Positions 16,809 to 61,683 of a stretch of DNA of 64,000 nucleotides are shown here, one piece after another. The notes beneath the pieces are model-generated. The model saw only the letters and a program-made list of their open reading frames with translations. It searched no databases and had not been told where the DNA came from. The stretch is taken from NCBI GenBank assembly GCA_036229005.1, contig JAZAMN010000025.1, positions 1-64,000 on the forward strand, in the 5' to 3' direction. Each line of letters starts with the position of its first letter. Position 1 is the first letter of the stretch. The position numbers and the translations under genes were made by a program. Source of the stretch: Myxococcota bacterium. GTDB taxonomy: Bacteria; Myxococcota_A; UBA796; CAJQPC01.

Positions 16809-17324
16809 ATGCTGCTGATCCTGCTGGCCTGCACGGCCCCCTCCGACACCGCCGACTCCAACCCCGCCGCGCTCCCGGAGCCCTGGGTGGACCACTACCA
16901 GGCCACCTCGGTGATCCAGGCCGGGGGCTTCTCCTTTGACGAGGAGTACCTGGTCCGGCGCATGGTGGACCCGCCCGCGGGCCGCATCGTGGAAGAGTTC
17001 ATCGCCACGGCCGACGGCACCCTGACCGAGACCACCCTGGAGATCGACGCGGACGCGGCGACCTTCACCCTGAGCTTCTCGGACGACTCCTACTCGGGGA
17101 CGGGCACGCTGGAGGGGCCGGCGTGGGCCTGGACGGGCTGGGAGAGCCACTCCGTCGCCCAGGACGGCAGCACGGTCGACTCCGTGGACACGGTGGACGA
17201 GGCGGGTGCCATCCACGCGGAGAAGGTGGGGTACAACGCCCAGGGTGAGCAGGAGTGGACCCTGGTCGAGGATCTGGCGCCCATCAGCGAGGACACCTGG
17301 ACCGAGCTGCACGGCGCCCTCTGA
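16809..17324 (+). CDS. Hypothetical acidic beta-rich lipoprotein
   Basis: MLLILLAC N-terminus; high GC3 from 16809 onward. Confidence 0.7.
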   Translation: MLLILLACTAPSDTADSNPAALPEPWVDHYQATSVIQAGGFSFDEEYLVRRMVDPPAGRIVEEFIATADGTLTETTLEIDADAATFTLSFSDDSYSGTGTLEGPAWAWTGWESHSVAQDGSTVDSVDTVDEAGAIHAEKVGYNAQGEQEWTLVEDLAPISEDTWTELHGAL

Positions 17325-17351
17325 GCCCGGGGTGCGCCTGGAGCTGAGCGC

Positions 17352-17714
17352 TCAGCAGGCGTCCAGCGTCTCCCAGCTCTCCTGGTCCCAGTCCGAAGGC
17401 AGGCAGTCTTCGTCCAGGTACCAGCCAAAGCCGTCGCCGTCGGTGGCGATGGTCGGCTCTTCGGTGCAGCCCAGGTCGGCGTCGCGGCAGCCCACGTACT
17501 CGAAGACCGCGCTGTCATCGAGGCAGTAGTCCACCCCGTCCGAGTCGGAGCCGGCCAGCTCGTTCAGCGGCTTGGCCAGGATCTCGGTGCAGCGCGGGTC
17601 GGCCTCGCAGCCGGTGGCGGAGAGCGCGGCGCAGCCCTCCAGATCGCCGTTGCAGCCTTCGGCCACGCAGACCTCGCAGGCGGTCAGCAGTCCAAGGAGC
17701 ATCGCGAGCATCAT
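17352..17714 (-). CDS. Small Cys-rich acidic lipoprotein
   Basis: MMLAMLLGLLTAC with many further Cys; ATGA overlap with the upstream gene. Confidence 0.7.
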   Translation of the reverse strand: MMLAMLLGLLTACEVCVAEGCNGDLEGCAALSATGCEADPRCTEILAKPLNELAGSDSDGVDYCLDDSAVFEYVGCRDADLGCTEEPTIATDGDGFGWYLDEDCLPSDWDQESWETLDAC

Positions 17715-18754
17715 TCCCCCCGAGGGTGTGGTGGTGTCTGGGCAGCGGAGCGCGGCTCTCTACCCCTCCGCCTGGAGAGCCCAATGTACTCCAGGCAGGT
17801 GGGATCCAGGCCCTCGATCTCCTCGGTCCACCCCTGTACCCGGGGCAGTAGCTTGCACGCTGTCCAGCGCACCTCGTCCACCGGCGAGGAGAGGGCGTCC
17901 ACGAAGAGCTCGGGGCCTGTGTCCTGGCGGTAGAACGCGCCTTCGATCAGGGCGACCTGCAGATCCACCTGGGCATCGGGGCCCAGCAGCCGCGTGCTGC
18001 CCCCGAAGCCGGCCACGTGGGGGTGGCGCTCCATGCTGGGGGGCAGGATGGGGGGCGTGTAGCGACCCAGGGTGCGCTCCAGGGGCAGAGGCTCGCCGCT
18101 GGGGCAGGGGCCGCTTCCCTCCCAGCAGGCGCGGGCGATCTGCAGGCCCTGGGGGCCGCCGGGGCCCAGGCGCATGGCCTCGATGGCCCAGGCGCTGCGG
18201 GCTTGCGCGCTGAACGCCTCGGCGTCCTGGGCGGCGGTGGGGTCGGCGCTGCCGGAGCCGACGTAGAGGTTGAACCAGGCCCGGGCCATCAGGGTGTCGA
18301 TGGCCTCGGGGGCCACGCCCGGGGGGGCGCCATCCATCGCGGACTCGATGAGGCCCTTGAACTCGGCCATCGCGGGGCCCGCGGGCTGGTCGGGGCGCAG
18401 ACCGGGCTGGCGGGGCAGGCCCCAGGCGGCGTGGGTGATGCAGTTCCGGGCGAAGTCGCCGGCCTGCGCGCACTGGCGGAGCGCCGCGTCGGTGTGGCCG
18501 GCCTTGCCGAGCTCTTCGCCGGCACGGAAGCGGCACTCGTCGGCCCAGAGGCCCTGGAGGGTGGCGCAGGTCTGGTCGACGGTGACGCTGTCTCCCCGGC
18601 CCCCCGCGCTGGCGGCGCGGGTCACAAGGCAGGTGGTGCGGGCGCCGGCCAGGGGCATCTGCTCGCAGGGGGTGCCTGCTTCCGAGGAGAGCTTGCGGGC
18701 GAGCTCCTGCGGAGAGTCGGGGGTCCCGCAGCCGGTGAGCAGCAGCCAGAACAT
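17711..18754 (-). CDS. Lipoprotein with paired-Cys helical repeats
   Basis: MFWLLLTGC; repeats CEQMPLAGARTTC, CATLQGLWADEC, CAQAGDFARNC. Start could also be GTG 18757. Confidence 0.65.
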   Translation of the reverse strand: MFWLLLTGCGTPDSPQELARKLSSEAGTPCEQMPLAGARTTCLVTRAASAGGRGDSVTVDQTCATLQGLWADECRFRAGEELGKAGHTDAALRQCAQAGDFARNCITHAAWGLPRQPGLRPDQPAGPAMAEFKGLIESAMDGAPPGVAPEAIDTLMARAWFNLYVGSGSADPTAAQDAEAFSAQARSAWAIEAMRLGPGGPQGLQIARACWEGSGPCPSGEPLPLERTLGRYTPPILPPSMERHPHVAGFGGSTRLLGPDAQVDLQVALIEGAFYRQDTGPELFVDALSSPVDEVRWTACKLLPRVQGWTEEIEGLDPTCLEYIGLSRRRGREPRSAAQTPPHPRGE

Positions 18755-19095
18755 CACGGGGCCCTCGGCGGAGGCTCTGGGGGGCGGTCGGCCTTGGGCG
18801 GGGTGGACAGGTGGGGGCGGCCGAGGACCTGCAGGCACTGGCGCTCCCCGTAGTCGTGGTGGACCTGCTTGCAGATCCAGCCCTGGTTGCGCGGGTCGGA
18901 CACCGCCAGTTCCACCAGCAGCATGTCGCGCTCCAGCGGGTCGGCGATGGTGTCGGCCTGGGCCAGGATGGCGTCGCGCTCGGCGGGCAGGTGCTGCAAT
19001 CGGCAGAGGGTGCGGGCGTCCGGCGCGGACAGGGCGGCGCACCCCGCGAAGTCGGCGGGCTCAGGCGTGCAGGCCAGCAGCAACAGGGCGATCAC
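18754..19095 (-). CDS. Small lipoprotein with paired-Cys repeats
   Basis: MIALLLLAC; CAALSAPDARTLC and CKQVHHDYGERQC; GTGA overlap with the enoyl-CoA hydratase stop. Confidence 0.65.
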   Translation of the reverse strand: MIALLLLACTPEPADFAGCAALSAPDARTLCRLQHLPAERDAILAQADTIADPLERDMLLVELAVSDPRNQGWICKQVHHDYGERQCLQVLGRPHLSTPPKADRPPEPPPRAP

Positions 19096-19913
19096 GGCTC
19101 GAAGACCTGCAGAGGGCCCCAGGGCGGGCGCACGCCCTTGCGGATGTCGCCGAAGTTCTCGCGACCCACGGCGGCCTCTCCGGAGTCGGCGCAGAGCTCG
19201 TAGGCGCGGGCCTCGATCTCCATGCGCTCGGCGGGGCCGTGGCCCAGGGCCGCCAGGGTGGCGCGCTTGAAGGCGCCGACGGCGGTGGGGGAGTTGCGGG
19301 CGACCCGCTGGGCGAGGGCCTTGGCGCGGGCCAGGCCGGCCTCTGTGTCGGGCACGATCTCCTGCACCAGGCCGATGCGCAGCGCCTCCTGGGCGTCGAT
19401 GCGCTCGCCGGTCATGCCCAGCCGCAGCGCCTGGGGCAGGCCGATGAGCTGGGCCAGCTCGGAGCTGCCGCCGGCGCCGGGGAGGATGCCCAGGCCGGTC
19501 TCGGGCAGGGCGAACACCGCGTCGGGGGTGGCGATGCGGTAGTCGCAGGTGATGCAGTATTCGCAGCCCCAGCCCAGGGCGGCGCCGCCAATCAGCCCCA
19601 CGTGGAAGAGGGGGAGCTGGCGCAGGCTGGCCAGGATGGCGCGCTGCCGGCGCACGTGGGCCTTGACCTGCTCCAGGGACCAGCCGCTGCGCTCGGTGAC
19701 GTTCGCGCCGGCCTGGAAGATGGGCGTCCCGCGGGAGGTGGTCTTGGTCGAGGTGGTGACCAGCGCGCCGACCGCGCCCGCCTGGAGCTCGGCGATGAGG
19801 ACCTCCAGGGCGTCAAGCTGGGCGCTGCCCATCTCGTTGACGCGGCCGTGGTCGAAGGTCAGCAGCGCGACGCCATCTTGGGTCTGCACCTGAAATCGGA
19901 AGGGCTCGGACAC
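19092..19913 (-). CDS. Enoyl-CoA hydratase/isomerase (crotonase) family protein
   Basis: FQAGAN, ALGWGCE, CDYRIA, FALPETGLGILPGAGG, TGERIDAQEALRIGLV. Confidence 0.9.
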   Translation of the reverse strand: MSEPFRFQVQTQDGVALLTFDHGRVNEMGSAQLDALEVLIAELQAGAVGALVTTSTKTTSRGTPIFQAGANVTERSGWSLEQVKAHVRRQRAILASLRQLPLFHVGLIGGAALGWGCEYCITCDYRIATPDAVFALPETGLGILPGAGGSSELAQLIGLPQALRLGMTGERIDAQEALRIGLVQEIVPDTEAGLARAKALAQRVARNSPTAVGAFKRATLAALGHGPAERMEIEARAYELCADSGEAAVGRENFGDIRKGVRPPWGPLQVFEP

Positions 19914-19967
19914 GCAGGCTCCGGGGAGGGGGGGACTGCTCCTTGGGTAGCACGTTAGCCCCACCGC

Positions 19968-20762
19968 ATGAGCATCCTGATGTTGCTGGCCTGTGGGCCA
20001 TCGGACTTCGACGAGGTCCACGATCTGCGCGATCTGCAGTCCCTGCTGGACAAGGGGGCCCTGGCCGGCCGCCAGGAGCTGGCCCTGCGCGATCTGGGCC
20101 TGGGCCCGGAGCTGGCGCGGGCCATCGCCGAGCACCCCGACGCCGAGAGCCTGCGCAGCCTGGATCTGCGCGGCAACGGGGTGGGGCCGCGGGGGGCGCA
20201 GGCCTTGGCGGACAGCGCGCACCTGGGCGCCCTGGAGTCGCTGAGCCTGGCGCCCGGGCGGGTACACATCGAGGGCAACCGGGTGGGCGACAAGGGCGCC
20301 CAGTTCCTGCTGGCGTCCACCGAGCTGAGCAGCCTGCGCCACCTGGACCTGGGGCAGAACGGGCTGAGCGCCGCAGGCCTGGACAGCCTGTCCTCGCCGG
20401 GGGTCCCCAGCCTCACAGAGCTGGTGCTGGACTCCAATGGCCTGGGTGATGAGGGCGCGGTGGTGCTCGCATCCAGCAACCGCCCCCTCACGACCCTGCA
20501 GCTCGGCTGGAACGGGGTGGGGGACCGCGGGGCCCAGGCTCTGGCGGATGGACCGGGCGCGGCGCACCTGCACGTGCTGCTGCTGGCCAGCAACGAGATC
20601 GGGCCGGCGGGGGGCCTGGCGCTGGCGCAGGGGGAGGCGCTGGACAGCGTGGAGGCGCTCTATCTGTCGGGGAACGCGCTGGATGAATCGTCGGAGTCGG
20701 CGTTGAAAGAGCGCTTTGGTGAGGCGCTCAAGCTGGGTGGGGGCGAGGCGACGCGGCAGTAG
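19968..20762 (+). CDS. Ribonuclease-inhibitor/GALA-type leucine-rich repeat lipoprotein
   Basis: MSILMLLAC; repeats LRSLDLRGNGVGPRGAQALA, LRHLDLGQNGL, LTELVLDSNGLGDEGA, LQLGWNGVGDRGAQALA. Confidence 0.85.
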   Translation: MSILMLLACGPSDFDEVHDLRDLQSLLDKGALAGRQELALRDLGLGPELARAIAEHPDAESLRSLDLRGNGVGPRGAQALADSAHLGALESLSLAPGRVHIEGNRVGDKGAQFLLASTELSSLRHLDLGQNGLSAAGLDSLSSPGVPSLTELVLDSNGLGDEGAVVLASSNRPLTTLQLGWNGVGDRGAQALADGPGAAHLHVLLLASNEIGPAGGLALAQGEALDSVEALYLSGNALDESSESALKERFGEALKLGGGEATRQ

Positions 20763-20768
20763 GCGGGC

Positions 20769-21767
20769 TCAGTCCGGGCGTCTGCCCTCCAGGAAGGCGG
20801 CCAGGAGCTGCTCGGCGGCGCGGGTGGGGGCGAGGTTGCCGGTCTGGACCTGGGCGCTGAGCGCGGGGAGCAGCTCGGCGACGCTCTGGCTCTCGTGGAG
20901 GGCGCGGCGCAGGCCCTGGTCGACCATCTGCCACATCCAGCGGGTGTCCTGGTCGCGGCGGCGTTGCTGGAAGGCGCCTGAGGCCTCCTGGAAGGCGCGG
21001 TGCTCCTGGAGGGCGGCCCAGACGGCGTCGATGCCTTGGCTGTGGAGGGCGCTGCAGGTGAGCACCTTGGGCTTCCAGCCCTCCTTGCCGGGGTGGAGGG
21101 TGCGCAGGGCGCTGCGGGTGGTCGTGGCGGCGCGCTTGGCGGGGAGCAGGTTGTCGCCGTCGGCCTTGTTGACCGCGAGCACGTCGGCCAGCTCCATCAG
21201 CCCGCGCTTGATGCCCTGGAGCTCGTCGCCGGCGCCGGCCAGCAGCAGGACCAGGAACACGTCGGTCATCTGGGCGACGGCCAGCTCGGACTGCCCCACG
21301 CCGACGGTCTCCACCAGGATGATGTCGTAGCCGGCGGCTTCGCAGAGCAGCAGGGCCTCGCGGGTGCGGGAGGCGACGCCGCCCAGGGTGCCCGAAGAGG
21401 GCGAAGGGCGGATGAACGCGCCCGGGTGCCGCGAGAGGCGCTCCATGCGGGTCTTGTCGCCCAGGATGCTGCCGCCGCTGCGGGTGGAGCTGGGGTCGAC
21501 GGCCAGGACGGCGACGCGATGCCCGGCCTCCACGAGCTGCATGCCCAGGGCCTCGATGAAGGTGCTCTTGCCGACGCCCGGGACCCCGGTGATCCCGACG
21601 CGGTGGGCCCGCCCGGTGTGGGGCATCAGGCGCGAGAGCAGCTCCCTGGCCTGGGTCTGGTGGCGGGCGCTGCGGGACTCAACGCGGGTGATGGACTGGG
21701 CCAGCAGGCTGCGGTCTCCCGCGAGCACACCTTGGGCCAAGACCTCGACGCTGGGACCTCTGCGCAT
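20769..21767 (-). CDS. meaB: Methylmalonyl-CoA mutase-associated GTPase MeaB/ArgK
   Basis: GITGVPGVGKST, VDPSS, GGSILGDKTRM, ETVGVGQSE, NKAD. Confidence 0.95.
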   Translation of the reverse strand: MRRGPSVEVLAQGVLAGDRSLLAQSITRVESRSARHQTQARELLSRLMPHTGRAHRVGITGVPGVGKSTFIEALGMQLVEAGHRVAVLAVDPSSTRSGGSILGDKTRMERLSRHPGAFIRPSPSSGTLGGVASRTREALLLCEAAGYDIILVETVGVGQSELAVAQMTDVFLVLLLAGAGDELQGIKRGLMELADVLAVNKADGDNLLPAKRAATTTRSALRTLHPGKEGWKPKVLTCSALHSQGIDAVWAALQEHRAFQEASGAFQQRRRDQDTRWMWQMVDQGLRRALHESQSVAELLPALSAQVQTGNLAPTRAAEQLLAAFLEGRRPD

Positions 21768-24278: not shown

Positions 24279-26441
24279 TCAGCCCTCCAGCAGCAGGTCG
24301 AGCAGCTCGCCAGCGGCCGCGGGGATCACGGTTCCGGGACCGAAGATCGCGACCGCGCCAGCCTCTTTGAGGGCCTTGTGGTCCTGGGGCGGGATCACGC
24401 CGCCGCAGACGATCAGGATGTCGGGGCGACCGAGCTCGTCCAGAGCCTTGCGCAGCGCGGGCACCAGGGTCAGGTGACCGGCGGCCAGGGAACTCACGCC
24501 CACCACGTGCACGTCGTTGTCGACGGCCTGCTGGGCGGACTCGCCGGGGGTCTGGAAGAGGGGGCCGATGTCCACGTCGAAGCCGATGTCGGCGAACGCG
24601 GTGGCGATCACCTTCTGGCCGCGGTCGTGGCCGTCCTGGCCCATCTTGGCCAGCAGGATGCGGGGCCGGCGGCCGTCCTCTTGCTCGAAGCGGTCGATCT
24701 TGGCCTGCAGGCTCTCCATCAGCTCCTCTCCGGTGCCAGACATTGCGGCGCGGTAGACCCCGCGGATGGACTGGGGGGTGGCCTGGTGGCGGCCAAAGGC
24801 CTTCTCCATGGCCAGGCTCATCTCGCCGACGGTGGCCTTGGCGCGGGCGGCCTCAACACACAGCGCGAGCAGGTTGTCGCTGCCCCTGGCGCCGGCCTCC
24901 AGGGCCTCCAGCGCGGCAGCCACGGCGGCCTCATCCCGCTCGGCGCGCAGCTTGGCGAGGCGGTCGAGCTGGGCCTGGCGCACGGCGGCGTTGTCCACCT
25001 TGAGCACCGGGATGTCCTCGGCCTCGTCCAGGGGGAAGCGGTTGACGCCCACCACGGACTGCTCGCCGGAGTCGATGCGCGCCTGGGTGCGGGCGGCGGC
25101 CTCCTCGATCCGGCGCTTGGGGATGCCGGCCTCGATGGCCTTGGCCATGCCGCCCAGGCCCTGGATCTCCTCCAGGTGGGCCCAGGCCTTGGCGGTCAGG
25201 TCCGCGGTCAGGGCCTCCACAAAGTGCGAGCCCGCCCAGGGGTCCACCGAGTCACAGGTGTCCGTCTCCTGCTGCAGGAAGAGCTGGGTGTTGCGGGCGA
25301 TGCGCGCGGAGAAGTCCGTGGGCAGGGCCAGGGCCTCGTCCAGCGAGTTGGTGTGCAGGGACTGGGTGTGCCCGGCGGTGGCGGCCATCGCCTCGATGCA
25401 GGTGCGGGTGACGTTGTTGTAGACGTCCTGGGCGGTGAGGCTCCAGCCGCTGGTCTGGGAGTGGGTGCGCAGCGACTGGGACTTGGCGTTCTTGGGACCG
25501 AAGCGGCCGACGAGCTCGGACCAGATCCCCCGGGCGGCGCGCAGCTTGGCGACCTCCATGAAGTAGTCCATGCCGATGGCCCAGAAGAAGCTCAGGCGCG
25601 GCGCGAAGGCGTCCACATCCAGCCCGGCGTCCACCCCGGCGTGCAGGTACTGGAGGCCGTCGGCCAGGGTGTAGGCCAGCTCCAGGTCCGCCGTCGCCCC
25701 CGCCTCCTGCATGTGGTAGCCGCTGATGCTGATGCTGTTGAAGCGCGGCATGTGCTGGGAGGTGTAGGCAAAGATGTCGGAGATGATCCGCATGCTCGGC
25801 CCGGGGGGGTAGATGTAGGTGTTCCGGACCATGAACTCCTTGAGGATGTCGTTCTGGATGGTCCCGGAGAGCTGACTTGTCGCGACGCCCTGCTCCTCGG
25901 CCGCGACGATGTAGAGCGCCATGATGGGCAGCACCGCCCCGTTCATGGTCATCGACACGCTCATCTTGTCCAGGGGGATGCCGTCGAACAGCACCCGCAT
26001 GTCCAGGATGGAGTCGATCGCCACGCCGGCCATGCCGACATCTCCGGTGACGCGCTCGTGGTCGGAGTCGTAGCCGCGGTGGGTCGCCAGGTCGAAGGCG
26101 ATGGACAGGCCCTTCTGGCCCTGCGCCAGGTTGCGGCGGTAGAAGGCGTTGGACTGCTCGGCGGTGGAGAAGCCGGCGTACTGGCGCACGGTCCAGGGCC
26201 GCATCACGTACATGCTGGCGTAGGGCCCGCGGATGTAGGGCGGCAGCCCGGGGAAGGTCCCCGTGTGGGCGTGCTGGGCGGGGCCGTAGAGCGGCTTGAC
26301 CGGGATGCCCTCGGGGGTCTCGCGGAGGGCGCTGTCAGGGCCGTGTCCGGCAGCTTGGCCAAACTCCTGGGACCAGCGGTCCGCGTCACACTGGGCGGGG
26401 CTGCTGAGCTCGAGCGAGGAGAAATCGGGGATGCGGCTCAC
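24279..26441 (-). CDS. mutB: Methylmalonyl-CoA mutase, large (B12-binding) subunit
   Basis: [35 protein letters not shown]12 motif [19 protein letters not shown] overlap with mutA. Confidence 0.97.
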
Positions 26442-28183
26442 AGGGCCTCCCAGAGATCGGTGAGCGCCGCCAAGGCATCGCAGCGCAGGTAGATGAAGGC
26501 GTCCACGCCGGCCTCGCGGAGGGCGGACTCCTGCTCGCCGGGCTTGCCGGCCAAGAGCACCCGCTGGGCGCCCGCGGACTTGAGGGCGGTGGCCAGCGCG
26601 GAGGCGTGCTCGGCGTACCCCGCGTCGCTGCCGCAGATGCAGGCCAAGCTGGCGCCGGAGTCGGCGAAGGCCTTGACGACGGAGTCCAGGTCCACGCGCT
26701 GGGGCGCGGGGGTGAATCCGCCGGCCTGCAGCAGGTTGCTGGCGAAACCCACGCGGGCGGTGTGGCTGGCGACAGGGCCGATGGCGGCCAGGAAGACGGC
26801 CGGGTTGCCCGCGGCGTCGCCGCGATCCCGCAGTTCCTCGTATGCGGACGCGTCTCTGGAGAGGGAGAGGGGGGCACAGAGCGAGGTGGTGGGGGCGGCA
26901 GTCCACAGACCCACCCGCTCCTCCCTCAGCTCGGGCCGCCGCTCGGAGAGCAGAGGGAACTCGGAGACGCCGGTGATGGGCTGACGGCGAGAGGCGATGC
27001 GGCTCTGGCGCTGGGCGCGCACCGGGGCGATCCAGTCGTGGATCCAGCCGCTCTGGAGGGCCTGCAGGTAGCCGCCCTGGCGCTCGATCTCTTGGAAGGC
27101 GGCCCAGGCGGTCTGCGCGAGCTCGGCGGTCCAGGTCTCCGGGGCGAAGGCGCCGCCGGCGGGGTCGATGACGCGGCCCAGGTGGGACTCCTCGGCCAGC
27201 ACGAGCTGGGTGTTCCGGGCGACGCGGGCGGCCAGGCGCTGGTCGGCGGGCTGGGCGCAGTCGGCGAAGGGCAGGGAGCTGATGGCCTGGGCGCCCCCGA
27301 CGGCCGCAGCGAACACGGCGGTGGTGTTGCGCAGCAGGTTGACCCAGACGTCGCGGCGGGTGGTCACGCGCCAGGAGAGCTGGGCGTGGATCACGGGGGC
27401 CCAGTCCACCCCGCAGGCCTGGGCCAGACGGGCGTGGAGCTGCCGGGCGGCGCGCAGCTTGGCGATGCCCAGGAACATGCGGGGGTCCAAGGCCAGCCGC
27501 AGCTCGGTGTTCTCGAACACCTGCTCGGGAGCGACGCCGCGGGCCTCCAGGGCGCGCAGGGTCTCGGCTTGCGCCGCCAGCCCCAGTGCGAGGTCCTGCA
27601 CCTCGCTGGCGCCTGCATGGTGGAAGGTGGTGGTCTGCAGGGCCAGAGCCCGGGTGCTGGGCCCAGACTGCTGGATGCAGGCAGCAGCCACCTCCCAGGC
27701 TTGCTCCAGCGTCCCGTCCAGGCCACCCCGCTCCGCGAGCTCGGTCAGAGGAGAGAGACCCAGGCCGCCCGAGGCTACCTGGCCCACCACCTGCGCCGCC
27801 TTGGCGCTCGCGGGCCCCACCAGATGAATGGGCGCCAGCGAGGTGTCCACGGCGGCGACCAGCGCGGAGACCAGGTCCGGGTCCTCTACGCTCAGGCCGC
27901 GCGCCCCCTTGTGGAGCTCATCGAGGGCCTGCTCCACCGAGGAGGCCGGCTGGCGAATCTCCCAGCCGTCCCGGGTCGCACCCAGCGCGCTGGCGCCGCG
28001 GCGGTAGGGGAACTGGCCGGGCAGCTCGGGGCTGTCTGGACCGTCGGTGTAGAGGGGCTGGATGTCCAGGCCCTCCAGGGTGCGGGTCACCAGGGCGCGC
28101 TCGAAGTCGCGACCGCGGAGATCCCGGTCGACGCGAGCACGCCAGTCCTGAAGGGTGGGGGAGGGGGACTGGCTGCCGGGCAT
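26438..28183 (-). CDS. mutA: Methylmalonyl-CoA mutase, small subunit
   Basis: [54 protein letters not shown]; no DxHxxG motif. Confidence 0.92.
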
Positions 28184-30685: not shown

Positions 30686-33600
30686 GTGTCCCGAAACCCC
30701 CTGCTCATCGGCGCTGGCCTGCTCGGCCTGACCCTGCTCACCGCCTGCCCTGTGCCCGTTGGTAGCACCCACACCGTCGAGGTCGCAGCCGGCGCCATCC
30801 TGGCCGTGGACGCCCAGCCGGGCAGCTTCGAGTACTGGCTGATCGACGAGAACGACGACCTGGTGGAGCACGAGGTGCTCACCGTGACCCCTGGACTCGG
30901 TGCTCTGGTGACGGTGGAGGCCACGGATGCTCGCGGCATCTACATCACCACCCCCAGCACCGCGACGGCCCCCGACTACTCCGTGAAGTTCGAGGGCAGC
31001 GTCGAGGACAACGCGCCCGTGTCCTACCTGCAGACCGATGAGCCCGCGTTCGAGGACCTGCGGCTGGACGACGAGGCCGCGATGCTCACCAAGCACGCTG
31101 CGATGGAGGCCATGAACGACCAGGTGCTCGCGAACTGGGCGCTGGACCACACCGCCCAGTCCGACGCCCTGGTCACCCTGGCCCACGACCAGGTCACCGG
31201 GAGCCAGTCCGATCTGCAGCAGGGGCTGCTGGTCATGCAGGACAGCGACGACATCGCGGCGGCCGAGGCTGGGATCGGCGGAGACCCGCAGTGGGTGGAT
31301 GACGCCGAGGCCGCCATGGACCTGCTGCAGCCCCAGGCGGAGCTGGACGCGGGCATCGCCGAGGCGGAGCTGCTGGACCTGGAGGCCAACGCGCCGGACC
31401 CCGCGGTGCTGACCGCAGCCATCGAGGCCTGCGCCGACGACCTGGAGCTGGAGGCTCTGGAGGTCGAGGCCCTGGTGACGACCTACTACCCGGGCAGCGA
31501 CTCGGAGAAGGAGGACCCTCGTCAGGACGAGATCGACGCCAAGTACGAGCAGATCCTGGAGCCGGCGCTGGCCGAGATCGAGATCAGCATGGGCGACATC
31601 GAGGACTGCGTGATGGAGGCCATCGGCGCCGAGCCCGACCCCGCCTACACCGAGCCCTCTGATGTGCCCTACGAGGAGATCGCCGCGGACGCTGAGGCCG
31701 CCGCCGAGGTCGGCGCTGCAGGGGCGGAGACCTTCCAGACCGACCTGGAGAGCACCTGGGCCGACCAGGAGGAGGGCGAGGGCGCCATGGCCTGGGACTC
31801 CCCGGGCTGGCACGCACCCGCGGACGCTGCGGTTGCCCTCATCGAGGCCGAGATCGGCGCGGAGTTGTTCGCATCCCCCACGGGAGGCGTCGGGGGGACC
31901 ACGCCCCCGAGCGCCACGAGCGCCACCTCGCGCACCGCTTCGGCGAAGGATGACTCCAGCGCGGACGCCTGCGAGAACACCTCCTTTGTGTTCAACTTCC
32001 AGCTCCAGGGCGTGGGTGTGGTCATCGGCACGCCCTTCTCGGATGTCATGCGCGGCGCTGACGTCGACGACGGCTACGAGGTGATGGTCGGCCTCTGGGG
32101 GGACGACTGCATGAACGGCCGCGGCGGCCATGAGCTCATGCTGGGCAACTGGGGTGACGACGAGATGCACGGCGGGGACGAGCACGAGCTCATCCTGGGC
32201 GGGCACGGTGACGACACCATCTTCGCGGGGGAGGGGGCCTCCTACAGCTTCCAGATCCCGACCACGCCGCCCATCGACGTGGAGCTGGACCTGGGCTCGG
32301 TGATCTTCGGCGGCCGAGGCAATGACACCATCTCGGGCTCCGACCCCGACTACGACGAGAACGACGCTGGCGACACCGGCTACACCGACCTCATCTTCGG
32401 GGACGGCCTGACCGACGACACCGCGGGCAACGACACCATCGACGGCGGCGCGGGCATCGACTTCCTGTTCGGCCAGTGGGGCGATGACACGCTCCGCAAC
32501 CGCCTGCCCGGCGCCATCGAGATCAACGGCGTGGACTGGCCCATCGGCAGCTTCCACTTTGGCGGCAAGGGCGACGACAACATGATCGGCTCGGACCGCT
32601 TCGACCTGATGGTCGGTGGCCGCGGCGACGAGACGGCGATCGAGGGCCGCGGGGGCCTGGACATCATCCTGGCCGGCAAGGGCGATGACGTCGGCGTGGA
32701 CGGCGGCGACGGCCTGGACTTCGTGTTCGGCGGCCGCGGCGATGATGAGGTCACCGGCGGCGACGGCATCGACCTGGTCGCCGGCAACAAGGGCGACGAC
32801 ACCGTGCTCGGTGGCGCCGGGGTGTTCGACCTGGTGATGGGCGGCAGCGGCGATGACGTGGTCATGGGCGAGGACGGCATCGACTTCGTGTTCGGCCGCT
32901 CGGGGCAGGACTGGGTCTACGGAGGCGATGGGCTCTTCGATCTGGTCTTTGGCGGAACCGACCGCGACAGCGTGTTCGGTGATGACGGCATGGACCTGGT
33001 CGTGGGCGGCGAAGGACGGGACTGGATCGAGGCCGGCTCCGGCCTGGTCGATCTGGCCGTGGGCCGCTCCGAGACCGACGTGATCTACGGCAACGACGGC
33101 CTGGACGTGCTGCTCGGCAACGGCGGCTCCGACTGGATGAGCGGGGACGCGGGCATCGACCTGATCTTCGCCTCCGACGGCGACGACGTGCTCTTTGGCG
33201 GGACCGGCGTGGACGTGCTCGCTGGAGCCGACGGCGCGGACTGCCTCTGGGGCAACGACGGCCTGGACCTGGGCATCGGCGGCGACGGCCAGGATCAGCT
33301 CGTCGGCGGCGATGGTCTGGACCTGCTGCTCGGCGGGGCCGAGGGCGATGTGCTCTTTGGTGAGTCCGGCATCGACATCATGTTGGGCGGCGAAGGAGCG
33401 GACTCCCTGGACGGCGGCAGCCAGCTCGACATCATCCTGGGCGGCGCTGGCGAGGACCTGGCCTACGGCGGGACCGAGCTGGACATCGTGCTGGGCGGAG
33501 ATGAGGCCGACTGTGTGGACGGCGAAGACGGCGAGGACATCCTGCTCGGCGGCGACGGCAACGACGTGCTGCTGGACTCCATGCTGAGCTTGGGCGGCGC

Positions 33601-34177
33601 GGGCGAAGATGAGCTGGAGATCCGCCTGCTCGCCCTGGGCGGCACCGGACACGACACCATCCTGCAGCAGGGCACCGGCCGCAACTTCGTGCTCGCTGGC
33701 GACGGCAACGACACGGTCTACCAGACCCCCGATGAGTACCTGTCCCTGATCCTGGGCGGCAAGGGCGAGGACACCCTGAGCATCCCCGGCTTCGAGGCCG
33801 AGGGCTCCGGCTCCAACACAAAGGGGATCGTGCTCTCCGGAGACGGCGGCGATGAGGTCCAGGCCTCCAAGGGCAAGTGCTACGTCTTCGGCCAGGACGG
33901 CGACGACTACCTGAGCGGCGAGGTCGACGGCACCACCAGCAACGACGACCAGCGTGACTGGATCCTGGGCGGCGGCGACCACGACAAGGTCTTCGGCGAC
34001 AAGAAGGACAAGCGCGACACCCTGGTCGGCGAGGACAAGTACCGGGACGAGTGGCCCTCGGGGAGCTGGGGCAGCCTCCACAGCCCGCCGGTGCTGGGGA
34101 GCTGCGATGTCATGCCCGACACCATCACCTGTGACGCTCAGATGGAGCCGCCCGGAGACGTGGGCGCCAAGGGCTGA
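30686..34177 (+). CDS. Large acidic lipoprotein with long RTX/hemolysin-type calcium-binding nonapeptide repeat region
   Basis: Lipoprotein signal MSRNPLLIGAGLLGLTLLTAC; dozens of GGxGxDxUx units; GGAGG RBS. Confidence 0.88.
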   Translation: MSRNPLLIGAGLLGLTLLTACPVPVGSTHTVEVAAGAILAVDAQPGSFEYWLIDENDDLVEHEVLTVTPGLGALVTVEATDARGIYITTPSTATAPDYSVKFEGSVEDNAPVSYLQTDEPAFEDLRLDDEAAMLTKHAAMEAMNDQVLANWALDHTAQSDALVTLAHDQVTGSQSDLQQGLLVMQDSDDIAAAEAGIGGDPQWVDDAEAAMDLLQPQAELDAGIAEAELLDLEANAPDPAVLTAAIEACADDLELEALEVEALVTTYYPGSDSEKEDPRQDEIDAKYEQILEPALAEIEISMGDIEDCVMEAIGAEPDPAYTEPSDVPYEEIAADAEAAAEVGAAGAETFQTDLESTWADQEEGEGAMAWDSPGWHAPADAAVALIEAEIGAELFASPTGGVGGTTPPSATSATSRTASAKDDSSADACENTSFVFNFQLQGVGVVIGTPFSDVMRGADVDDGYEVMVGLWGDDCMNGRGGHELMLGNWGDDEMHGGDEHELILGGHGDDTIFAGEGASYSFQIPTTPPIDVELDLGSVIFGGRGNDTISGSDPDYDENDAGDTGYTDLIFGDGLTDDTAGNDTIDGGAGIDFLFGQWGDDTLRNRLPGAIEINGVDWPIGSFHFGGKGDDNMIGSDRFDLMVGGRGDETAIEGRGGLDIILAGKGDDVGVDGGDGLDFVFGGRGDDEVTGGDGIDLVAGNKGDDTVLGGAGVFDLVMGGSGDDVVMGEDGIDFVFGRSGQDWVYGGDGLFDLVFGGTDRDSVFGDDGMDLVVGGEGRDWIEAGSGLVDLAVGRSETDVIYGNDGLDVLLGNGGSDWMSGDAGIDLIFASDGDDVLFGGTGVDVLAGADGADCLWGNDGLDLGIGGDGQDQLVGGDGLDLLLGGAEGDVLFGESGIDIMLGGEGADSLDGGSQLDIILGGAGEDLAYGGTELDIVLGGDEADCVDGEDGEDILLGGDGNDVLLDSMLSLGGAGEDELEIRLLALGGTGHDTILQQGTGRNFVLAGDGNDTVYQTPDEYLSLILGGKGEDTLSIPGFEAEGSGSNTKGIVLSGDGGDEVQASKGKCYVFGQDGDDYLSGEVDGTTSNDDQRDWILGGGDHDKVFGDKKDKRDTLVGEDKYRDEWPSGSWGSLHSPPVLGSCDVMPDTITCDAQMEPPGDVGAKG
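32060..34040 (+). repeat. Coding tandem GGxGxD nonapeptide repeats with an 18-aa superperiod
   Basis: GGDGLDFVF-GGRGDDEVT, GGDGIDLVA-GNKGDDTVL, GNDGLDVLL-GNGGSDWMS and similar; boundaries approximate. Confidence 0.85.
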
Positions 34178-42574: not shown

Positions 42575-43324
42575 ATGATTCGCACCCAAGGCATCCAGAA
42601 GCGCTACCGCGGCTTCCAGGCGCTGCACCCCCTGGACCTCGAGGTCCACGCCGGCGAGGTCTTCGGCTTCCTGGGCCCCAACGGCGCCGGCAAGACCACC
42701 ACGATCCGCATCCTGTCGGGCATCCTGCCGCCCACGGACGGGCGCATCTTCATCGACGGCGTGGACATGGTGGCCGACCCCGTCAGCGCCAAGGCCAAGG
42801 TCGGCTACATCCCGGACCGGCCCTACCTCTACGAGAAGCTCACCGCGCGGGAGATGCTGCAGTTCGTGGGCGGGGTCTACGGCATGGGCCGCGGGGAGAT
42901 CGACGCCCGAGGGCAGATCCTGCTGGAGGAGTACGGCCTGGGCGAGTTCGCGGACGAGCTGGTGGAGGGCTTCTCCCACGGCATGAAGCAGCGCCTGAGC
43001 CTGTGCTGCGCGATGCTGCACGAGCCCCGCCTGCTGATCGTGGATGAGCCCATGGTGGGCCTGGATCCGCGGGGGGCGCGGCAGATCAAGGAGGTGTTCC
43101 GCGGCTGGGCGGCCCGGGGCGGCACCGTGTTCTTGTCCACCCACTCCCTGGACGTGGCCCAGGAGGTCTGCGACCGGCTGGCCATCATCAACAAGGGGCG
43201 CATCGTGGCCCAGGGCACCTACGAAGAGATACGGGGAGCGGGTCGCGACGACGCCAAGGATCTGGAGGAGGTCTTCCTCCGCATCCTGGAAGAGCAGGAC
43301 ACCCCCCAAGGAGCCCCCCAATGA
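42575..43324 (+). CDS. ABC transporter ATP-binding protein (CcmA/ABC-2 type)
   Basis: GPNGAGKTT, FSHGMKQR, LIVDEP, STH. Confidence 0.93.
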   Translation: MIRTQGIQKRYRGFQALHPLDLEVHAGEVFGFLGPNGAGKTTTIRILSGILPPTDGRIFIDGVDMVADPVSAKAKVGYIPDRPYLYEKLTAREMLQFVGGVYGMGRGEIDARGQILLEEYGLGEFADELVEGFSHGMKQRLSLCCAMLHEPRLLIVDEPMVGLDPRGARQIKEVFRGWAARGGTVFLSTHSLDVAQEVCDRLAIINKGRIVAQGTYEEIRGAGRDDAKDLEEVFLRILEEQDTPQGAPQ

Positions 43325-43794
43325 CCCTCATGTTGCTCGCTGTGATCGCGTGTGCGGGCCGCCGCGAGGCGCGCCATGGGCTCAAGGCCGAGGGCCAGTA
43401 CGTGCTGGGCGAGCTGCCCGGCTGGGAGCGCCTCAAGGACGCCGGCGGGGCCGACTACGCCTGGCGCAATCCCCAGGGAGCCGTGATCTTCGCGGACTCC
43501 AACTGTGGGCCCAACTACGAGGACTCCAAGCTGGAGGACCTCACCGAGAAGCAGCTCGCTGGCATCTCCGAGGGAGAGCCGCTGCTGTCCACCCCCCTGA
43601 GCCTCGCCGAGCGCAGCGCCCTCCAGGAGCAGTACCTGGGGCGCCTGGATGGGGTGCCCGTCGCCCTGGGCATCACCGTGGTCAAGAAGCACTTCTGCGT
43701 GTACGACTTCGTCCTGATCGCCCCCCGCGGCGCCTCCTTCGACGCCGCCTGGCCCGCCTACGCCTCCGCGGTGGAGGGCTTCGACCCCGAATGA
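43321..43794 (+). CDS. Hypothetical lipoprotein (possibly PsbP/DUF1795-like fold)
   Basis: MTLMLLAVIAC; ATGA overlap; LDGVPV...KKHFCVYDF. The fold guess is weak. Confidence 0.65.
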   Translation: MTLMLLAVIACAGRREARHGLKAEGQYVLGELPGWERLKDAGGADYAWRNPQGAVIFADSNCGPNYEDSKLEDLTEKQLAGISEGEPLLSTPLSLAERSALQEQYLGRLDGVPVALGITVVKKHFCVYDFVLIAPRGASFDAAWPAYASAVEGFDPE

Positions 43795-45407: not shown

Positions 45408-45758
45408 TCAATTCCCAGGCAGGTGGATGTCCAGGCGCAGGGTCCCGTCGCCGAGCTGCGCGCTGCCGTGCACATCGGTCCCGCTGGGCGCGCGCTGGAC
45501 CTGGGCGTCCTGCAGGGGAAGCGCCACCCGCCAGGGCAGGGGAGGTCCACAGCGCAGCGGGGCCGAGGGCTCGTCCAGACAGAGCACCAGGGTGTCCGCC
45601 TCCAGGCCGCCTTGGAGGCCCCACAGCTCGGTCGCGCCCGCGCCATCTGGGCAGGTGAGCGTCGCCCGGCTCTTGGCCGCGTCGATGCCCGTGGAGCAGG
45701 GTACCGGCGGGGGCTTTGGGGCGCGCTGGCAGGCCAGCAGGGTGAGCAGAAGGGTCAT
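45408..45758 (-). CDS. Small hypothetical lipoprotein
   Basis: MTLLLTLLAC after a GAGGTGGAG RBS; fills the gap between mlaF and the next gene. Confidence 0.5.
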   Translation of the reverse strand: MTLLLTLLACQRAPKPPPVPCSTGIDAAKSRATLTCPDGAGATELWGLQGGLEADTLVLCLDEPSAPLRCGPPLPWRVALPLQDAQVQRAPSGTDVHGSAQLGDGTLRLDIHLPGN

Positions 45759-54650: not shown

Positions 54651-55193
54651 ATGCGATACACCGCGCTGCCCCTGGCGGCCCTGTGCCTGTTGGCCCTGAG
54701 CGCCTGTGACAACGGCGACGGAAACTTCACCACCACCACCGACGGCCCCGACGTGGTCGAGGGGAACGGCGACCTGAGCCTGGAGGTCGCGACCCTGGTG
54801 TGGGAGGACCTGGAGGCCGGCAAGACCGTCGGCAACACCCTGGCCTTCGAGAACGTGGGCGACCTGAACCTGGTGATCTACGAGGCCCGCGTCATCGACT
54901 CGGCCGGCGGCGTGTTCTACCTGGGCGAGACCGAAGACGTCGTCGTGGCCCCCGGCGGCACCTTCGACATGACCGTCACGGCCACCCTGCCCGGCGACCA
55001 GCCCAAGTACGGCACCCTGCGCGTCAAGACCAACGACCTGGACTACCTGGAGTTCACTGTCGACCTGGAGGCCTACCCCACCGGCTGGGGCGTCGACACC
55101 GGCGACACGGGTGACACCGCGGACACGGGTGACACCGCAGACACGGGCGGCTCCGACACGGGCGGCTCCGACTCCGGCGACTCCGGCGAGTGA
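54651..55193 (+). CDS. Lipoprotein with Ig-like (ASH/DUF1573-like) domain and DTG/DSG repeat tail
   Basis: MRYTALPLAALCLLALSAC; FENVGDLNLVI...GTLRVKTND; TATGCT -10 and GGAGG RBS upstream. Confidence 0.8.
   Translation: MRYTALPLAALCLLALSACDNGDGNFTTTTDGPDVVEGNGDLSLEVATLVWEDLEAGKTVGNTLAFENVGDLNLVIYEARVIDSAGGVFYLGETEDVVVAPGGTFDMTVTATLPGDQPKYGTLRVKTNDLDYLEFTVDLEAYPTGWGVDTGDTGDTADTGDTADTGGSDTGGSDSGDSGE
55095..55190 (+). repeat. Coding D-(T/S)-(G/A) tandem repeat
   Basis: DTGDTGDTADTGDTADTGGSDTGGSDSGDSGE. Confidence 0.85.
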
Positions 55194-58638: not shown

Positions 58639-60984
58639 ATGGACATCCACCAGATCCTCAAGGATCGCTTTGGCTTCGAGGCCTACCGGCCCGGCCAGGA
58701 AGCGATCGTACAGCACCTCGTCGACGGGGACGATGCCCTCGTCGTCATGCCCACCGGCGCGGGAAAGTCGCTGTGCTACCAGGCCCCGGCGGTGTGCCGC
58801 GGTGGCACGACGCTGGTCGTCAGCCCCCTCATCGCCTTGATGAAGGACCAGGTCGACGCCCTCAACGCCAAGGGCATCCGGGCCACCTTCATCAACTCCT
58901 CGCTGAGCATGGAGGAGCGCCGCGACCGCACGCAGAAGCTGCTGGAGGGGCACTGGGAGCTGCTCTACGTGGCCCCCGAGCGCTTCACGCCGCGCTTCCT
59001 CAAGATGCTGCGCGGGGTGGATCTGCGCATGCTGGCGGTGGACGAGGCGCACTGCCTGAGCCAGTGGGGCCACGACTTCCGCCCCGACTACCTGCGCCTG
59101 GGGCGCGTGCGCCAGTTCCTGCTGGAGGCCGGCAAGGACCTGCCCACGGTGGCGCTCACCGCGACCGCCACGCCGCGCGTGCAGGACGACATCGTCAAGA
59201 CCCTGGGCCTGGAGCCGCGGCGCTTCATCCAGGGCTTCGACCGCGAGAACCTGGCCCTGGAGGTCGTGCAGGTCAACCGCCTCCGGGACAAGGTCGCGCT
59301 GCTCCCGGACCTGGTGCGGGGCTCGCTGTCGCTGGTCTACTGCGCCACCCGCAAGAACGTGGAGAAGGCCACCAAGGCGCTGCGTGAAGCGGGGGTGCAA
59401 GGGGTCGACTGCTACCACGGCGGGCTGCTCCCGGACGAGCGCACGCGGGTGCAGGACGCCTTCATGAGCGGCAAGCTGCGCTGCGTGGTGGCGACCAACG
59501 CCTTCGGCATGGGCGTGGACAAGGCGGACGTGCGCACCATCGTGCACTGGGACTTCCCCGGCACGGTGGAGGCCTACTACCAGGAGATCGGCCGCGCCGG
59601 GCGTGACGGCCTGCCCTCCCGCGTGGTGCTGATGTTCAACGAGAAGGACCGGCGCACGCAGGAGTTCTTCATCACCATGGGCCACCCGCCGGCGGCCTAC
59701 GTGCGCTCGGTCTTTGACCGCATCGTCGCCGAGGGCACAAACCCGGTCTTCCTGACCCGCCAGCAGATGGCCGAGCGCCTGCCGGACGACGCCGGCGGGG
59801 AGCGCACCGCGTCGAGCTGTATCTACGTGCTCCAGCGCGAGGGTTGGGTGCGCCGAATCCACCCCGCCGACCGACCCGCGCGCGTGGTGCTCTCCACCCA
59901 CCCCCCGGCAGACGCCCCCAAGGGACGCCGAGGCTTGATCCTGCAAGAGGTGCGGGAGCGCCTCAGCGAGTTCCCGGGCGACTCCCTGGAGCTCAACCCC
60001 CAGCGCATGGCCGAGGCCCTGGGCATGGAGCGCGACCAGCTCGTGGCGGCCCTGCGGGGGCTCGAAGACCGCGGCTACTTGAGCTGGCGGCCGGCCGAGC
60101 GCATCGGCGGGGTGGAGCTGCTGCGCCCCGGTCAGGAGCTGGTGCTCGACGAGCAGAGCATGCACAAGCGGCGGCAGGATGAGTTCGCCAAGCTCGACAA
60201 GATGGTGGACTACGCCTCCGCCACCTGCAGGCGCCGCTACCTGCTGGAGTACTTCGGCCAGACGCCGGCCTACGAGCGCTGCGGGACCTGCGATCTCTGC
60301 CGCTCGGGGGCCGCCATCCAGACCGGTCCGCGGGCCCTGGACGCCCAGGAGGAGGTCATCGTCCGCAAGGTGCTGGCCTGCATGGCGCGCATGGGGCGGC
60401 CCTTCTCCTCGGCCATGATCGTCAAGGTCCTGCGCGGCTCTGAAGACGCCGCCGTGCGCGGCTTCAAGTTCGAGCGCCTGAGCACCCACGGCATCCTCAA
60501 GGCCCACACCCAGGTCGAGCTCGAGCAGCTCCTGGGCGAGCTCACCCGCGCCGGCTGCGTGGACAAGCAGTACACGACCCGCATGGTGGGGGGCAGCGAG
60601 CGCAGCTACGCCGAGCTGTCGCTCACCGAGAAGGGCCTGCGCGTGATGCGTCAGCAGGAGCCGGACTTTGAGATGGTCTGGCCCAAGCTCAAGACCCGCT
60701 CCCTGCCGCGTCCGCCACCGCGCCGCCCCGGACAGCCCAAGGTCGCCTCCGATCTGCTGGTCTACCTCCGCGAGATCCGCCGCAAGGTCGCCACCGAAGA
60801 GGACGTGCCCGCCTACGTGGTCGCGCCCAACCGCACCCTCGAGGACATGGCCGCTCTGCGCCCCACAACCCGCAAGGGCATGCTCGAAGTGCACGGGATG
60901 GGCCAGCGCCGCTTCCAGCGCTACGGTCGCCCCTTTCTGGACGCCATCCGGAGCTGGACCGCCAGCGCCGCCGCTTCGGGCTGA
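58639..60984 (+). CDS. recQ: RecQ family ATP-dependent DNA helicase with winged-helix insertion, RQC and HRDC domains
   Basis: MPTGAGKSLCYQ, DEAHCLSQWGHDFRPDY, TATA, ATNAFGMG, YYQEIGRAGRDG, CRR...CGTCDLC, HRDC VPAYVV. Confidence 0.95.
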   Translation: MDIHQILKDRFGFEAYRPGQEAIVQHLVDGDDALVVMPTGAGKSLCYQAPAVCRGGTTLVVSPLIALMKDQVDALNAKGIRATFINSSLSMEERRDRTQKLLEGHWELLYVAPERFTPRFLKMLRGVDLRMLAVDEAHCLSQWGHDFRPDYLRLGRVRQFLLEAGKDLPTVALTATATPRVQDDIVKTLGLEPRRFIQGFDRENLALEVVQVNRLRDKVALLPDLVRGSLSLVYCATRKNVEKATKALREAGVQGVDCYHGGLLPDERTRVQDAFMSGKLRCVVATNAFGMGVDKADVRTIVHWDFPGTVEAYYQEIGRAGRDGLPSRVVLMFNEKDRRTQEFFITMGHPPAAYVRSVFDRIVAEGTNPVFLTRQQMAERLPDDAGGERTASSCIYVLQREGWVRRIHPADRPARVVLSTHPPADAPKGRRGLILQEVRERLSEFPGDSLELNPQRMAEALGMERDQLVAALRGLEDRGYLSWRPAERIGGVELLRPGQELVLDEQSMHKRRQDEFAKLDKMVDYASATCRRRYLLEYFGQTPAYERCGTCDLCRSGAAIQTGPRALDAQEEVIVRKVLACMARMGRPFSSAMIVKVLRGSEDAAVRGFKFERLSTHGILKAHTQVELEQLLGELTRAGCVDKQYTTRMVGGSERSYAELSLTEKGLRVMRQQEPDFEMVWPKLKTRSLPRPPPRRPGQPKVASDLLVYLREIRRKVATEEDVPAYVVAPNRTLEDMAALRPTTRKGMLEVHGMGQRRFQRYGRPFLDAIRSWTASAAASG

Positions 60985-61017
60985 CTCACCCCGGAGCGGG
61001 GGGGGTAGCATGCGCCC

Positions 61018-61683
61018 ATGCTGATCTTCCTGATGATGGCCTGCAGCCCGGTTGACCTCGTTCCGCTCTCCGAGCTGGACAGCCCTGCTGCGCGGGTCTG
61101 GCTCCAGGAGGTGGGGTCGGGTGTGAGCGTGTTCACGGACCTCTCCTTCTCCGTCAACGGCCGCTGCGGGGGCCTCTCGGATCTGGAGTTCGTCACCTTC
61201 AACGACCAGGAGGGCGACCTGCGCTTCGCCGAGAAGGTGAACGGGGAGTGTCATGGACCCCAGGCCTTCCTCACCGTCCCGGACTTCGAGGGCCCTCTGG
61301 AGATCAAGTGGGGCGCGTCTTCAGGCGAGGAGCTGCTGATCGTGGACGCAGCCACCGGCCCCACGGGCCTGGAGCTGCTCAGCCCCGCGGACGGGATCCT
61401 GGACACCGAGACCCAGGTGGTGGTGGGCTTTGACACCCCGGAGACCGTGAGCGGCGTCCGACTGATGATCCAGGGCGCCGACGGGGTCCCTCACCGGCAC
61501 GACGTGGACAGCGTCGGTCAGGAGTTCATCGTGGAGAGCACGGAGGCCACGGGCATGCTGAGCCGCGTGGAGCTCAACCTGTTGGACTGGATGCCGCCGA
61601 TCACCCAGTGCCCGGAGACCTGGGAGTGCAGCTTCTGGGAGGCTGTCTGGAGCGAGAACCTGGTGGTCCCCATCCCCGAGTAG
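61018..61683 (+). CDS. Hypothetical acidic lipoprotein
   Basis: MLIFLMMAC; two further Cys pairs; in-frame TAG 12 nt upstream fixes the start. Confidence 0.7.
   Translation: MLIFLMMACSPVDLVPLSELDSPAARVWLQEVGSGVSVFTDLSFSVNGRCGGLSDLEFVTFNDQEGDLRFAEKVNGECHGPQAFLTVPDFEGPLEIKWGASSGEELLIVDAATGPTGLELLSPADGILDTETQVVVGFDTPETVSGVRLMIQGADGVPHRHDVDSVGQEFIVESTEATGMLSRVELNLLDWMPPITQCPETWECSFWEAVWSENLVVPIPE

Follow-up and report, generated by a model that had tools for sequence, protein, structure and literature searches.

Nine genes in a 64,000-nucleotide stretch of DNA from an uncultured marine Myxococcota bacterium begin with methionine, a short uncharged hydrophobic run and a cysteine, which raises the question of whether such brief N-termini can be true lipoprotein signals and, if so, which route reads them. 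The stretch, here called the window, covers positions 1-64000 of contig C25 in a 6.4-Mb genome (G000) of 70% G+C that is 94% complete and whose assembly contains no 16S. A signal peptide of about 15-25 residues, composed of an n-, an h- and a c-region, is a textbook constant. Judged from sequence, the departure from this textbook signal peptide is real and lineage-wide, and the reading adopted here does not involve a separate pathway. We lean towards genuine minimal Sec signals, which would be handled by the ordinary Sec-Lgt-LspA/LepB machinery with a relaxed threshold; beyond the reality of the starts, we infer every step of this account. If it holds, half-length, uncharged signals would be used beside normal ones by some 620-700 lipoproteins and some 200 proteins with a signal of the signal peptidase I (SPase I) type, together about 15% of all genes.

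Start sites in the window and across the genome

All nine N-termini listed by the sequence-only reading are present, with the cysteine at positions 8-13 and no Lys, Arg, Asp or Glu ahead of it. Four of the genes lie on the plus strand: a lipoprotein-like gene without a Pfam family (16809..17324; signal MLLILLAC at 16809-16832, with the cysteine at position 8, hereafter Cys8), a leucine-rich-repeat lipoprotein (PF13516; 19968..20762; MSILMLLAC, Cys9) with a -10-like box that includes an in-frame TAG three codons upstream, a lipoprotein with a PsbP/DcrB-like predicted fold (43321..43794; MTLMLLAVIAC, Cys11) whose start overlaps the preceding stop as ATGA, and a further lipoprotein (61018..61683; MLIFLMMAC, Cys9) preceded at 6 nt by TAGCAT, the TAG of which is an in-frame stop three codons upstream. 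The five on the minus strand are a Cys-rich small lipoprotein (17352..17714; MMLAMLLGLLTAC, Cys13; ATGA overlap with the preceding stop), a lipoprotein (17711..18754; MFWLLLTGC, Cys9; 1-nt overlap with the preceding stop), a small lipoprotein (18754..19095; IALLLLAC after a GTG start, Cys9; GTGA overlap with the preceding stop), a lipoprotein with a C-terminal AhpC/TSA redoxin domain (PF00578; 34245..35894; LLLLLAC after a GTG start, Cys8; GGAG 5 nt upstream) and another small lipoprotein (45408..45758; MTLLLTLLAC, Cys10; GGAG 4 nt upstream). Overlap with a preceding stop is found in four of the nine (17714, 18754, 19095 and 43321), and Pfam matches in only two, the leucine-rich-repeat and the AhpC/TSA proteins.

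The starts at 17714, 19095, 19968, 43321 and 61018 are the most upstream ones in frame, as had been claimed. At 35894 and 45758 further in-frame starts occur 17 and 23 codons upstream, that of 45758 being an ATG. The only start of the nine unsupported by our evidence rules is 16809; its 30 preceding codons contain no ATG, GTG or TTG, and the sole upstream alternative is a GTG at 16368, inside the divergent tonB gene. A sigma-70 scan of positions 16500-20200 found no promoter. The longer signals with a basic residue that had been pointed out in the same window are real too and served as internal controls: a lipoprotein with RTX calcium-binding repeats (30686..34177, plus strand; Cys21, Arg3) and a second lipoprotein (54651..55193, plus strand) with an Arg in its n-region, whose start may be 54639. 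The same is true of the short signal of the TonB-dependent receptor (PF00593 and PF07715; 35946..38474, minus strand), which is uncharged, of SPase I type, and starts at GTG 38474, 7 nt past a TACTGT.

For the genome as a whole, gene calls and signal classes were obtained with custom scripts and a codon-model gene caller (5395 genes). A lipobox-like cysteine near the start was found in 739 genes, of which 484 offer a short uncharged signal only, 193 both a short and a canonical option, 47 a canonical signal only and 15 neither. In the 484 short-only genes the start was chosen irrespective of upstream signals, and 409 of these starts have a Shine-Dalgarno (SD) sequence, a -10-like box or an overlap with a preceding stop (284, 129 and 83 genes for SD, stop overlap and -10-like box, respectively), compared with 12% of 22,949 internal ATGs. 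The rule for the -10-like box was broadened after examples had been seen, its background being 0.15%. The in-frame dicodon score is -1.3 in the ten codons upstream, which is non-coding-like, versus +0.54 in the mature part, and an in-frame stop lies within eight codons upstream in 178 of the 677 genes with a short start option.

These data bear directly on the explanation that the starts were miscalled, the true N-termini being longer (through upstream or non-canonical starts) or the proteins cytoplasmic. Such an explanation can draw on 43 of the 193 genes with both options, in which the longer, charged start is the better supported one, and on the 75 of 484 short-only genes that have no start evidence. 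It is opposed by the in-frame stops, the stop overlaps and the SD spacing, by the non-coding character of the upstream DNA, and by the haem-c, disulphide-parity and outer-membrane-family cargo described below. On the start evidence and on the orthologues of the 43321 gene it was rejected for most genes, and as a general account it is very improbable; that the short starts are real we regard as close to certain.

In 739 of 5395 genes (~14%) the start codon is preceded at 5-8 nt by a -10-like box, which suggests that many mRNAs are leaderless; in the window this applies to the starts at 19968, 38474, 54639 and 61018. Leaderless translation as the cause of the short signals was rejected, since such boxes precede 117 of 697 short signals (and 10 of 144 canonical ones) and most short signals have an SD sequence.

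Signal features and probably exported cargo

Starts were later re-picked with the use of start signals, which makes the resulting counts partly circular: 697 short and 144 canonical lipoprotein signals, 620 of the short ones having the cysteine at position 13 or earlier, with a mode of 8-10. A further 367 short hydrophobic N-termini were found, 212 of which fit an A-x-A-like site, together with 156 canonical SPase-I-like signals. Under the pattern used, the short SPase-I-type signals are uncharged and span ~9-13 residues, with guessed cleavage sites, and two of ten sampled proteins of this class were false positives, namely inner-membrane proteins. This contamination and the circularity of the re-picked starts both count against our reading.

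Counting such N-termini genome-wide and in relatives, a check named in the sequence-only reading, bore out the recurrence seen in the window and placed it in one order (see below). An uncharged run with a lipobox cysteine at or before position 13 opens 620 of 5311 gene starts (11.7%) versus 29 of 26,599 internal methionines (0.11%), an approximately 100-fold difference, and a strict Cys8 DNA pattern gave 56 matches in the forward reading of the genome versus 0 in the reversed one. The 620 signals comprise 533 distinct sequences, and the 697 proteins form 582 sequence clusters; they are thus not one expanded family. In 595 of the 620 signals the number of bulky hydrophobic residues is 4-6 (mode 7-8 in canonical signals), and the signals end in a lipobox of the form L-[LAS]-[AG]-C, with LLAC in 225 of the 620. 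Signal lengths form a continuum from Cys7 up to canonical. A PROSITE-like lipoprotein rule is passed by 136 of the 144 canonical signals and by none of the 697 short ones, the latter partly by construction. Rule-based prediction would miss ~80% of the lipoproteins of this organism, and the envelope proteins and secretomes of the order may consequently have been undercounted.

The short signals can be compared with several known systems. With the Sec signals cleaved by signal peptidase II (SPase II), of the Escherichia coli Lpp type (PMC9360617), they share a lipobox with an invariant cysteine, a hydrophobic run, a polar start of the mature protein and an unpaired cysteine; Lgt, LspA, Lnt and LolA are all encoded here, and the mature domain appears to be extracytoplasmic, as suggested by haem-c motifs, cysteine parity, Pfam families and orthologues with canonical signals. 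They differ in lacking a basic n-region (no Lys, Arg, Asp or Glu precedes the cysteine in the nine or in the 620), in the position of the cysteine (7-13 versus 14-39) and in the number of bulky hydrophobic residues (about five versus 7-8). Likewise, the short SPase-I-type signals resemble Sec/SPase I substrates in having a hydrophobic run and an A-x-A-like site before TolC-like, OmpA, TonB-dependent receptor and BamD-like proteins, and differ from them in being uncharged and only ~9-13 residues long. Unlike signals for twin-arginine translocation (Tat), the short signals contain no Arg, and separate Tat-like signals occur in the genome. The G|FTLIE-type site that follows the basic leader of prepilins is absent from the nine, and four separate prepilins match that pattern.

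Two ways in which the missing charge might be made up for were examined. A positive charge shifted behind the cysteine was rejected, as Lys or Arg occurs at +2 to +6 in 34% of short versus 44% of canonical signals. Nor is there a sign of compensation for removal of the initiator methionine: signals with a small second residue and those with a large one do not differ in their hydrophobic count (p=0.73), and retention of the formyl group or of the methionine therefore cannot be read from sequence.

The nature of the cargo argues for export. Among the 84 proteins with a CxxCH (haem-c) motif, 41 have short signals (35 lipoproteins and six others), and DxDxDG is found in 129 of 697 short-signal versus 75 of 4031 non-signal proteins. 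Once the lipobox cysteine is excluded, an even number of cysteines is found in 475 of 608 short-signal and 94 of 125 canonical-signal proteins, compared with 1553 of 3324 non-signal proteins. This parity fits extracytoplasmic disulphides with the first cysteine otherwise occupied, the lipobox cysteine being typically unpaired, and would be the best indirect sign of lipidation. In a small test, 20 proteins were drawn at random from the 238 eligible ones (300-560 aa, start evidence present); Pfam matches were obtained for 13, including two TolC-like proteins, an OmpA barrel, two MopE, FG-GAP, beta-helix, DUF1592, DUF4476 and a family-5 solute-binding protein (SBP_bac_5) with a Cys9 signal, with a Kelch match just below the cut-off. 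No cytoplasmic housekeeping family was found among these 13 matched proteins. We hold that the short-signal proteins are very probably exported and that the short-signal lipoproteins are quite probably lipidated.

As for precedents, a search of the literature, in which subscription journals were mostly uncovered and the signal tables of surveys could hold such signals uncommented, gave no account of them for any bacterium. An activated-sludge study reported large secretomes for Myxococcota, and short signals are unmentioned in its available part (PMC11495043).

Distribution in the order and the route of export

The trait, as traced by DNA patterns, is that of one order, within which it is very uneven, and it is near-absent elsewhere in the phylum. 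The strict Cys8 pattern has 56 matches in G000, 90 in a congener and 0-42 in 34 other members of the order, as opposed to 0-2 in 12 genomes of sister orders and 0-4 in 203 genomes from elsewhere in the phylum (0-2 in the reversed control). A Cys9 pattern was matched in 109 of 121 genomes of the order, 49 of which have at least ten matches; this level is reached by 29 of 30 genomes of family f6 and by none of the nine of family f4, which have 0-5 matches each. In DNA samples of ~200 kb, short signals made up 14 of 21 lipobox genes in G000, 8/24 in G020, 5/17 in G152, 5/20 in G050 and 2/8 in G056, and at the low end 2/11 in G072, 2/15 in G117, 2/16 in G147 and 0/11 in G067. Five sister-order samples (60-140 kb) yielded three short signals among 23 lipobox genes, all three without start evidence.

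Within the order, short and canonical signals replace one another on related proteins. Two tandem paralogues on contig C52 are 69% identical, one having an uncharged Cys10 signal and the other a Cys15 signal with an Arg. For the 43321 lipoprotein, 30 loci were examined out of the 53 genomes with a match among the 81 searched; their signals range from Cys11 to Cys31, and in most of them the start overlaps the upstream stop in the same way. Signals without an n-region were found in G000 and G102 (Cys11), G127 (Cys13) and G077 (Cys13-14), nearly all others being canonical, including that of G207 (Cys21), which belongs to the same genus as G000. Homologues in databases concur with this picture, in which the orthologue has been shortened in four separate lineages of the order. 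The canonical signals on orthologues and on a tandem paralogue imply that individual genes lost their n-regions one at a time. The 53 matches to the 43321 query came from 81 genomes of the class, with none in the 19 genomes of family f2.

A comparable exchange was seen for YfiO/BamD-like proteins: in G102 and G142 their signals lack an n-region and are preceded by -10-like boxes, and in G000 the signal is charged. BamD of E. coli is a lipoprotein. The YfiO/BamD-like orthologues of the class (L009-L038) mostly have SPase-I-type signals without a lipobox, the one with a lipobox being that of G062. BamD was set aside as a test of core lipoproteins, since the lack of a lipobox in most class orthologues means that only SPase-I-type signals were tested.

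The distribution bears on an explanation that needs no special machinery, according to which any bacterial Sec/Lgt/LspA would take such signals, the order has drifted, and the change in SecY described below is an unrelated lineage marker. This is consistent with the description of the basic n-region as an aid that raises export efficiency, the apolar region being the essential part (PMC9360617), with a penetrance that ranges from none to ~80% under the same SecY residue, and with the many order-diagnostic columns of SecY and SecA. The scarcity of the strict pattern in sister orders and in the rest of the phylum and the shortening of the same orthologue in four lineages inside the order speak against it, and both fit a shared permissive change; we hold drift by itself to be improbable.

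Where such a change might lie was sought in the export machinery. For each of SecA, SecY, Lnt and LolA a single match exceeds the cut-off, and Ffh, FtsY, fmt and two def genes are present; loss of the signal recognition particle (SRP) was rejected on the presence of Ffh and FtsY. There are six S26-peptidase matches, the best of which lies in the window itself and is the best LepB match of the genome (signal peptidase I, 61726..62487, minus strand; TIGR02227 over its cut-off). Lgt has four matches, two of them below the TIGR00544 cut-off, and LspA two. Over 27 genomes, the number of matches varies from 1 to 7 for Lgt and from 1 to 3 for LspA, inside and outside the order alike, so that copy number explains nothing. 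No extra machinery limited to short-signal genomes was found among SecA, SecY, Lgt, LspA, Lnt and LolA, with YidC, SecE, SecDF, SecB and factors of other kinds outside this search. In having several paralogues per genome, here of Lgt and LspA, the organism resembles Myxococcus xanthus with its lspA1-4, two copies of which are tied to the myxovirescin cluster (PMC8048626); here, in contrast, copy number does not track short signals.

What the sequence-only reading had proposed, a second pathway using divergent copies of Sec, Lgt or LspA, is a rival at this point. In its fuller form, a lineage-specific factor or specialised Lgt/LspA paralogues would recognise the tag, which may be N-formylated and hence uncharged. 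The number of Lgt and LspA matches, with two Lgt below the cut-off, can be cited for it, as can a Phe in transmembrane segment 2 (TM2) of LspA that is found in 19 of 22 order sequences versus 0 of 14 outside (a lead only), the narrow hydrophobic count of the signals, and the in vitro finding from E. coli that bound SRP prevents deformylation (PMC5454389), Ffh and FtsY being encoded here. Against it stand the copy numbers, with multiple Lgt and LspA also in sister orders and other myxobacteria, the single LspA match in G217 (29 pattern matches) and in G020 despite their many short signals, the two def genes, and the continuous range of signal lengths. The SPase-I-type signals have been shortened as well, which implicates a shared targeting or translocation step and not a lipoprotein-specific route. 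Dedicated Lgt/LspA paralogues were rejected on their non-specific copy number, and a dedicated route as a whole appears quite improbable. The earlier proposal is supported as to true N-termini, working-looking lipoprotein signals without an n-region and a lineage trait, and unsupported as to the divergent paralogues.

Use of the ordinary Sec route, as adopted here, seems likely from the gene content, and a candidate for its relaxed threshold is found in SecY. At the position of I187 (E. coli numbering, via alignment with 5abb), 16 of 27 members of the order have Ala and 11 have Ser, compared with Ile in three of three sister-order genomes; the F192 position is T, S, A or V in the order, T168 is also changed, and F286 and I408 are unchanged in G000. 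I187 is a residue of the SecY pore ring (PMC2171872), and the pore ring, plug and gate are the sites of prlA alleles, which permit export with defective signals (PMC7530735). The likeness to E. coli prlA suppressors (prlA4, F286Y/I408N) lies in a pore-ring change alongside tolerance of defective signals (PMC7530735, PMC2171872). In prlA4 the altered residues are F286 and I408, which are unaltered here, where the change is natural, order-wide and at I187, with T168, F192 and others.

Several observations weigh against a simple causal role of this residue. It is one of five order-wide changes among 170 conserved SecY columns, and order-diagnostic columns are about as frequent in SecA, which has 23, as in SecY. 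Among outgroup SecYs, 16 of 79 are non-Ile at I187, and those genomes have 0-1 pattern matches; one sequence (L039, genome G263) was dropped from this outgroup as a probable order member, its SecY being 71% identical to that of G000 with order-type residues in TM5, and its 11.8-Mb genome, whose Enterobacterales label is probably wrong, has Ala at I187 yet no pattern match. Members of the order with the I187 change can be without short signals (G067 and family f4, with the counts given above), and no paper was found in the literature in which I187A or I187S had been tested as a prl allele. Comparison of the SecA signal-binding region with a list of residues gave nothing clearly linked to the trait. 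That the I187 change is causal is, on balance, doubtful.

Under the relaxed-threshold reading, a signal in this order would require no more than methionine, some five bulky hydrophobic residues and then either a lipobox or an A-x-A site. The threshold would have been relaxed in the ancestor of the order, after which n-regions could have been lost gene by gene at rates differing between families. SRP or SecA would target the Leu-rich tag to the single SecYEG, and a permissive, prl-like SecY (I187 to Ala/Ser, with neighbouring changes in TM4 and TM5) might open without a basic n-region. The tag would then sit in the membrane's outer half; here Lgt may add diacylglycerol and LspA cut, or LepB in the case of non-lipoproteins, and Lnt and LolA would complete the process as usual. 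With the N-terminus left within the bilayer, an end that is uncharged or formylated would be favoured. A formyl-methionine cap is possible in this organism, which encodes fmt, two def genes, Ffh and FtsY.

A bolder version of the same idea is a rewritten export code, in which a seven-residue, possibly formylated and uncharged fMet-LLLLLA-C would be captured by SRP, pass through a naturally prl-like SecY and be processed in the outer leaflet alone, with no membrane-spanning signal and no positive-inside rule. This we consider unlikely; if true, the order would have a prl system of natural origin and proteome-wide reach, and the smallest signal that Sec, Lgt, LspA and LepB accept would be defined by it. 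For the relaxed threshold itself, the matched natural pairs (69%-identical paralogues, same-genus orthologues) and the candidate SecY residue offer a means to probe the roles of n- and h-regions and proofreading by SecY.

Neighbouring genes and lgt-lspA loci

The two divergent Lgt paralogues below the TIGR00544 cut-off (L005, C21:84375-85220; L006, C52:307944-308822) have an H-D-H stretch after the GRLGC motif. Elsewhere in the genome, two lspA genes and an lgt gene form one cluster (L001/L002, C8:68311-71829), with a 495-aa membrane protein between the lspA copies; in the congener G207 the lspA copies are adjacent, without this protein. Near the lspA-lgt operon, C8:64370-65547 holds what we take, by eye, to be a toxin-antitoxin-chaperone module (HigB-type toxin, helix-turn-helix antitoxin and SecB-like chaperone).

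Within the window, the redoxin lipoprotein (34245-35894) comes directly after the TonB-dependent receptor, which has a weak N-terminal TonB_C-like stretch. The product of 30686-34177 has 1163 aa and eight stretches of RTX calcium-binding repeats, yet a canonical Sec/SPase II signal; RTX repeats usually accompany type I secretion. The 43321 lipoprotein belongs to a run at 42575-45390 that further includes an ATP-binding cassette (ABC) ATPase and MlaE- and MlaF-like genes. By eye, the operon at 11241-15945 presumably encodes a type III polyketide synthase-like protein, a methyltransferase-like membrane protein, an acyl carrier protein, a fatty acyl-AMP ligase-like protein and a flavin adenine dinucleotide (FAD) oxidoreductase, and we likewise take 24279-28183 to encode the subunits of methylmalonyl-CoA mutase and 20769-21728 a MeaB-like GTPase.

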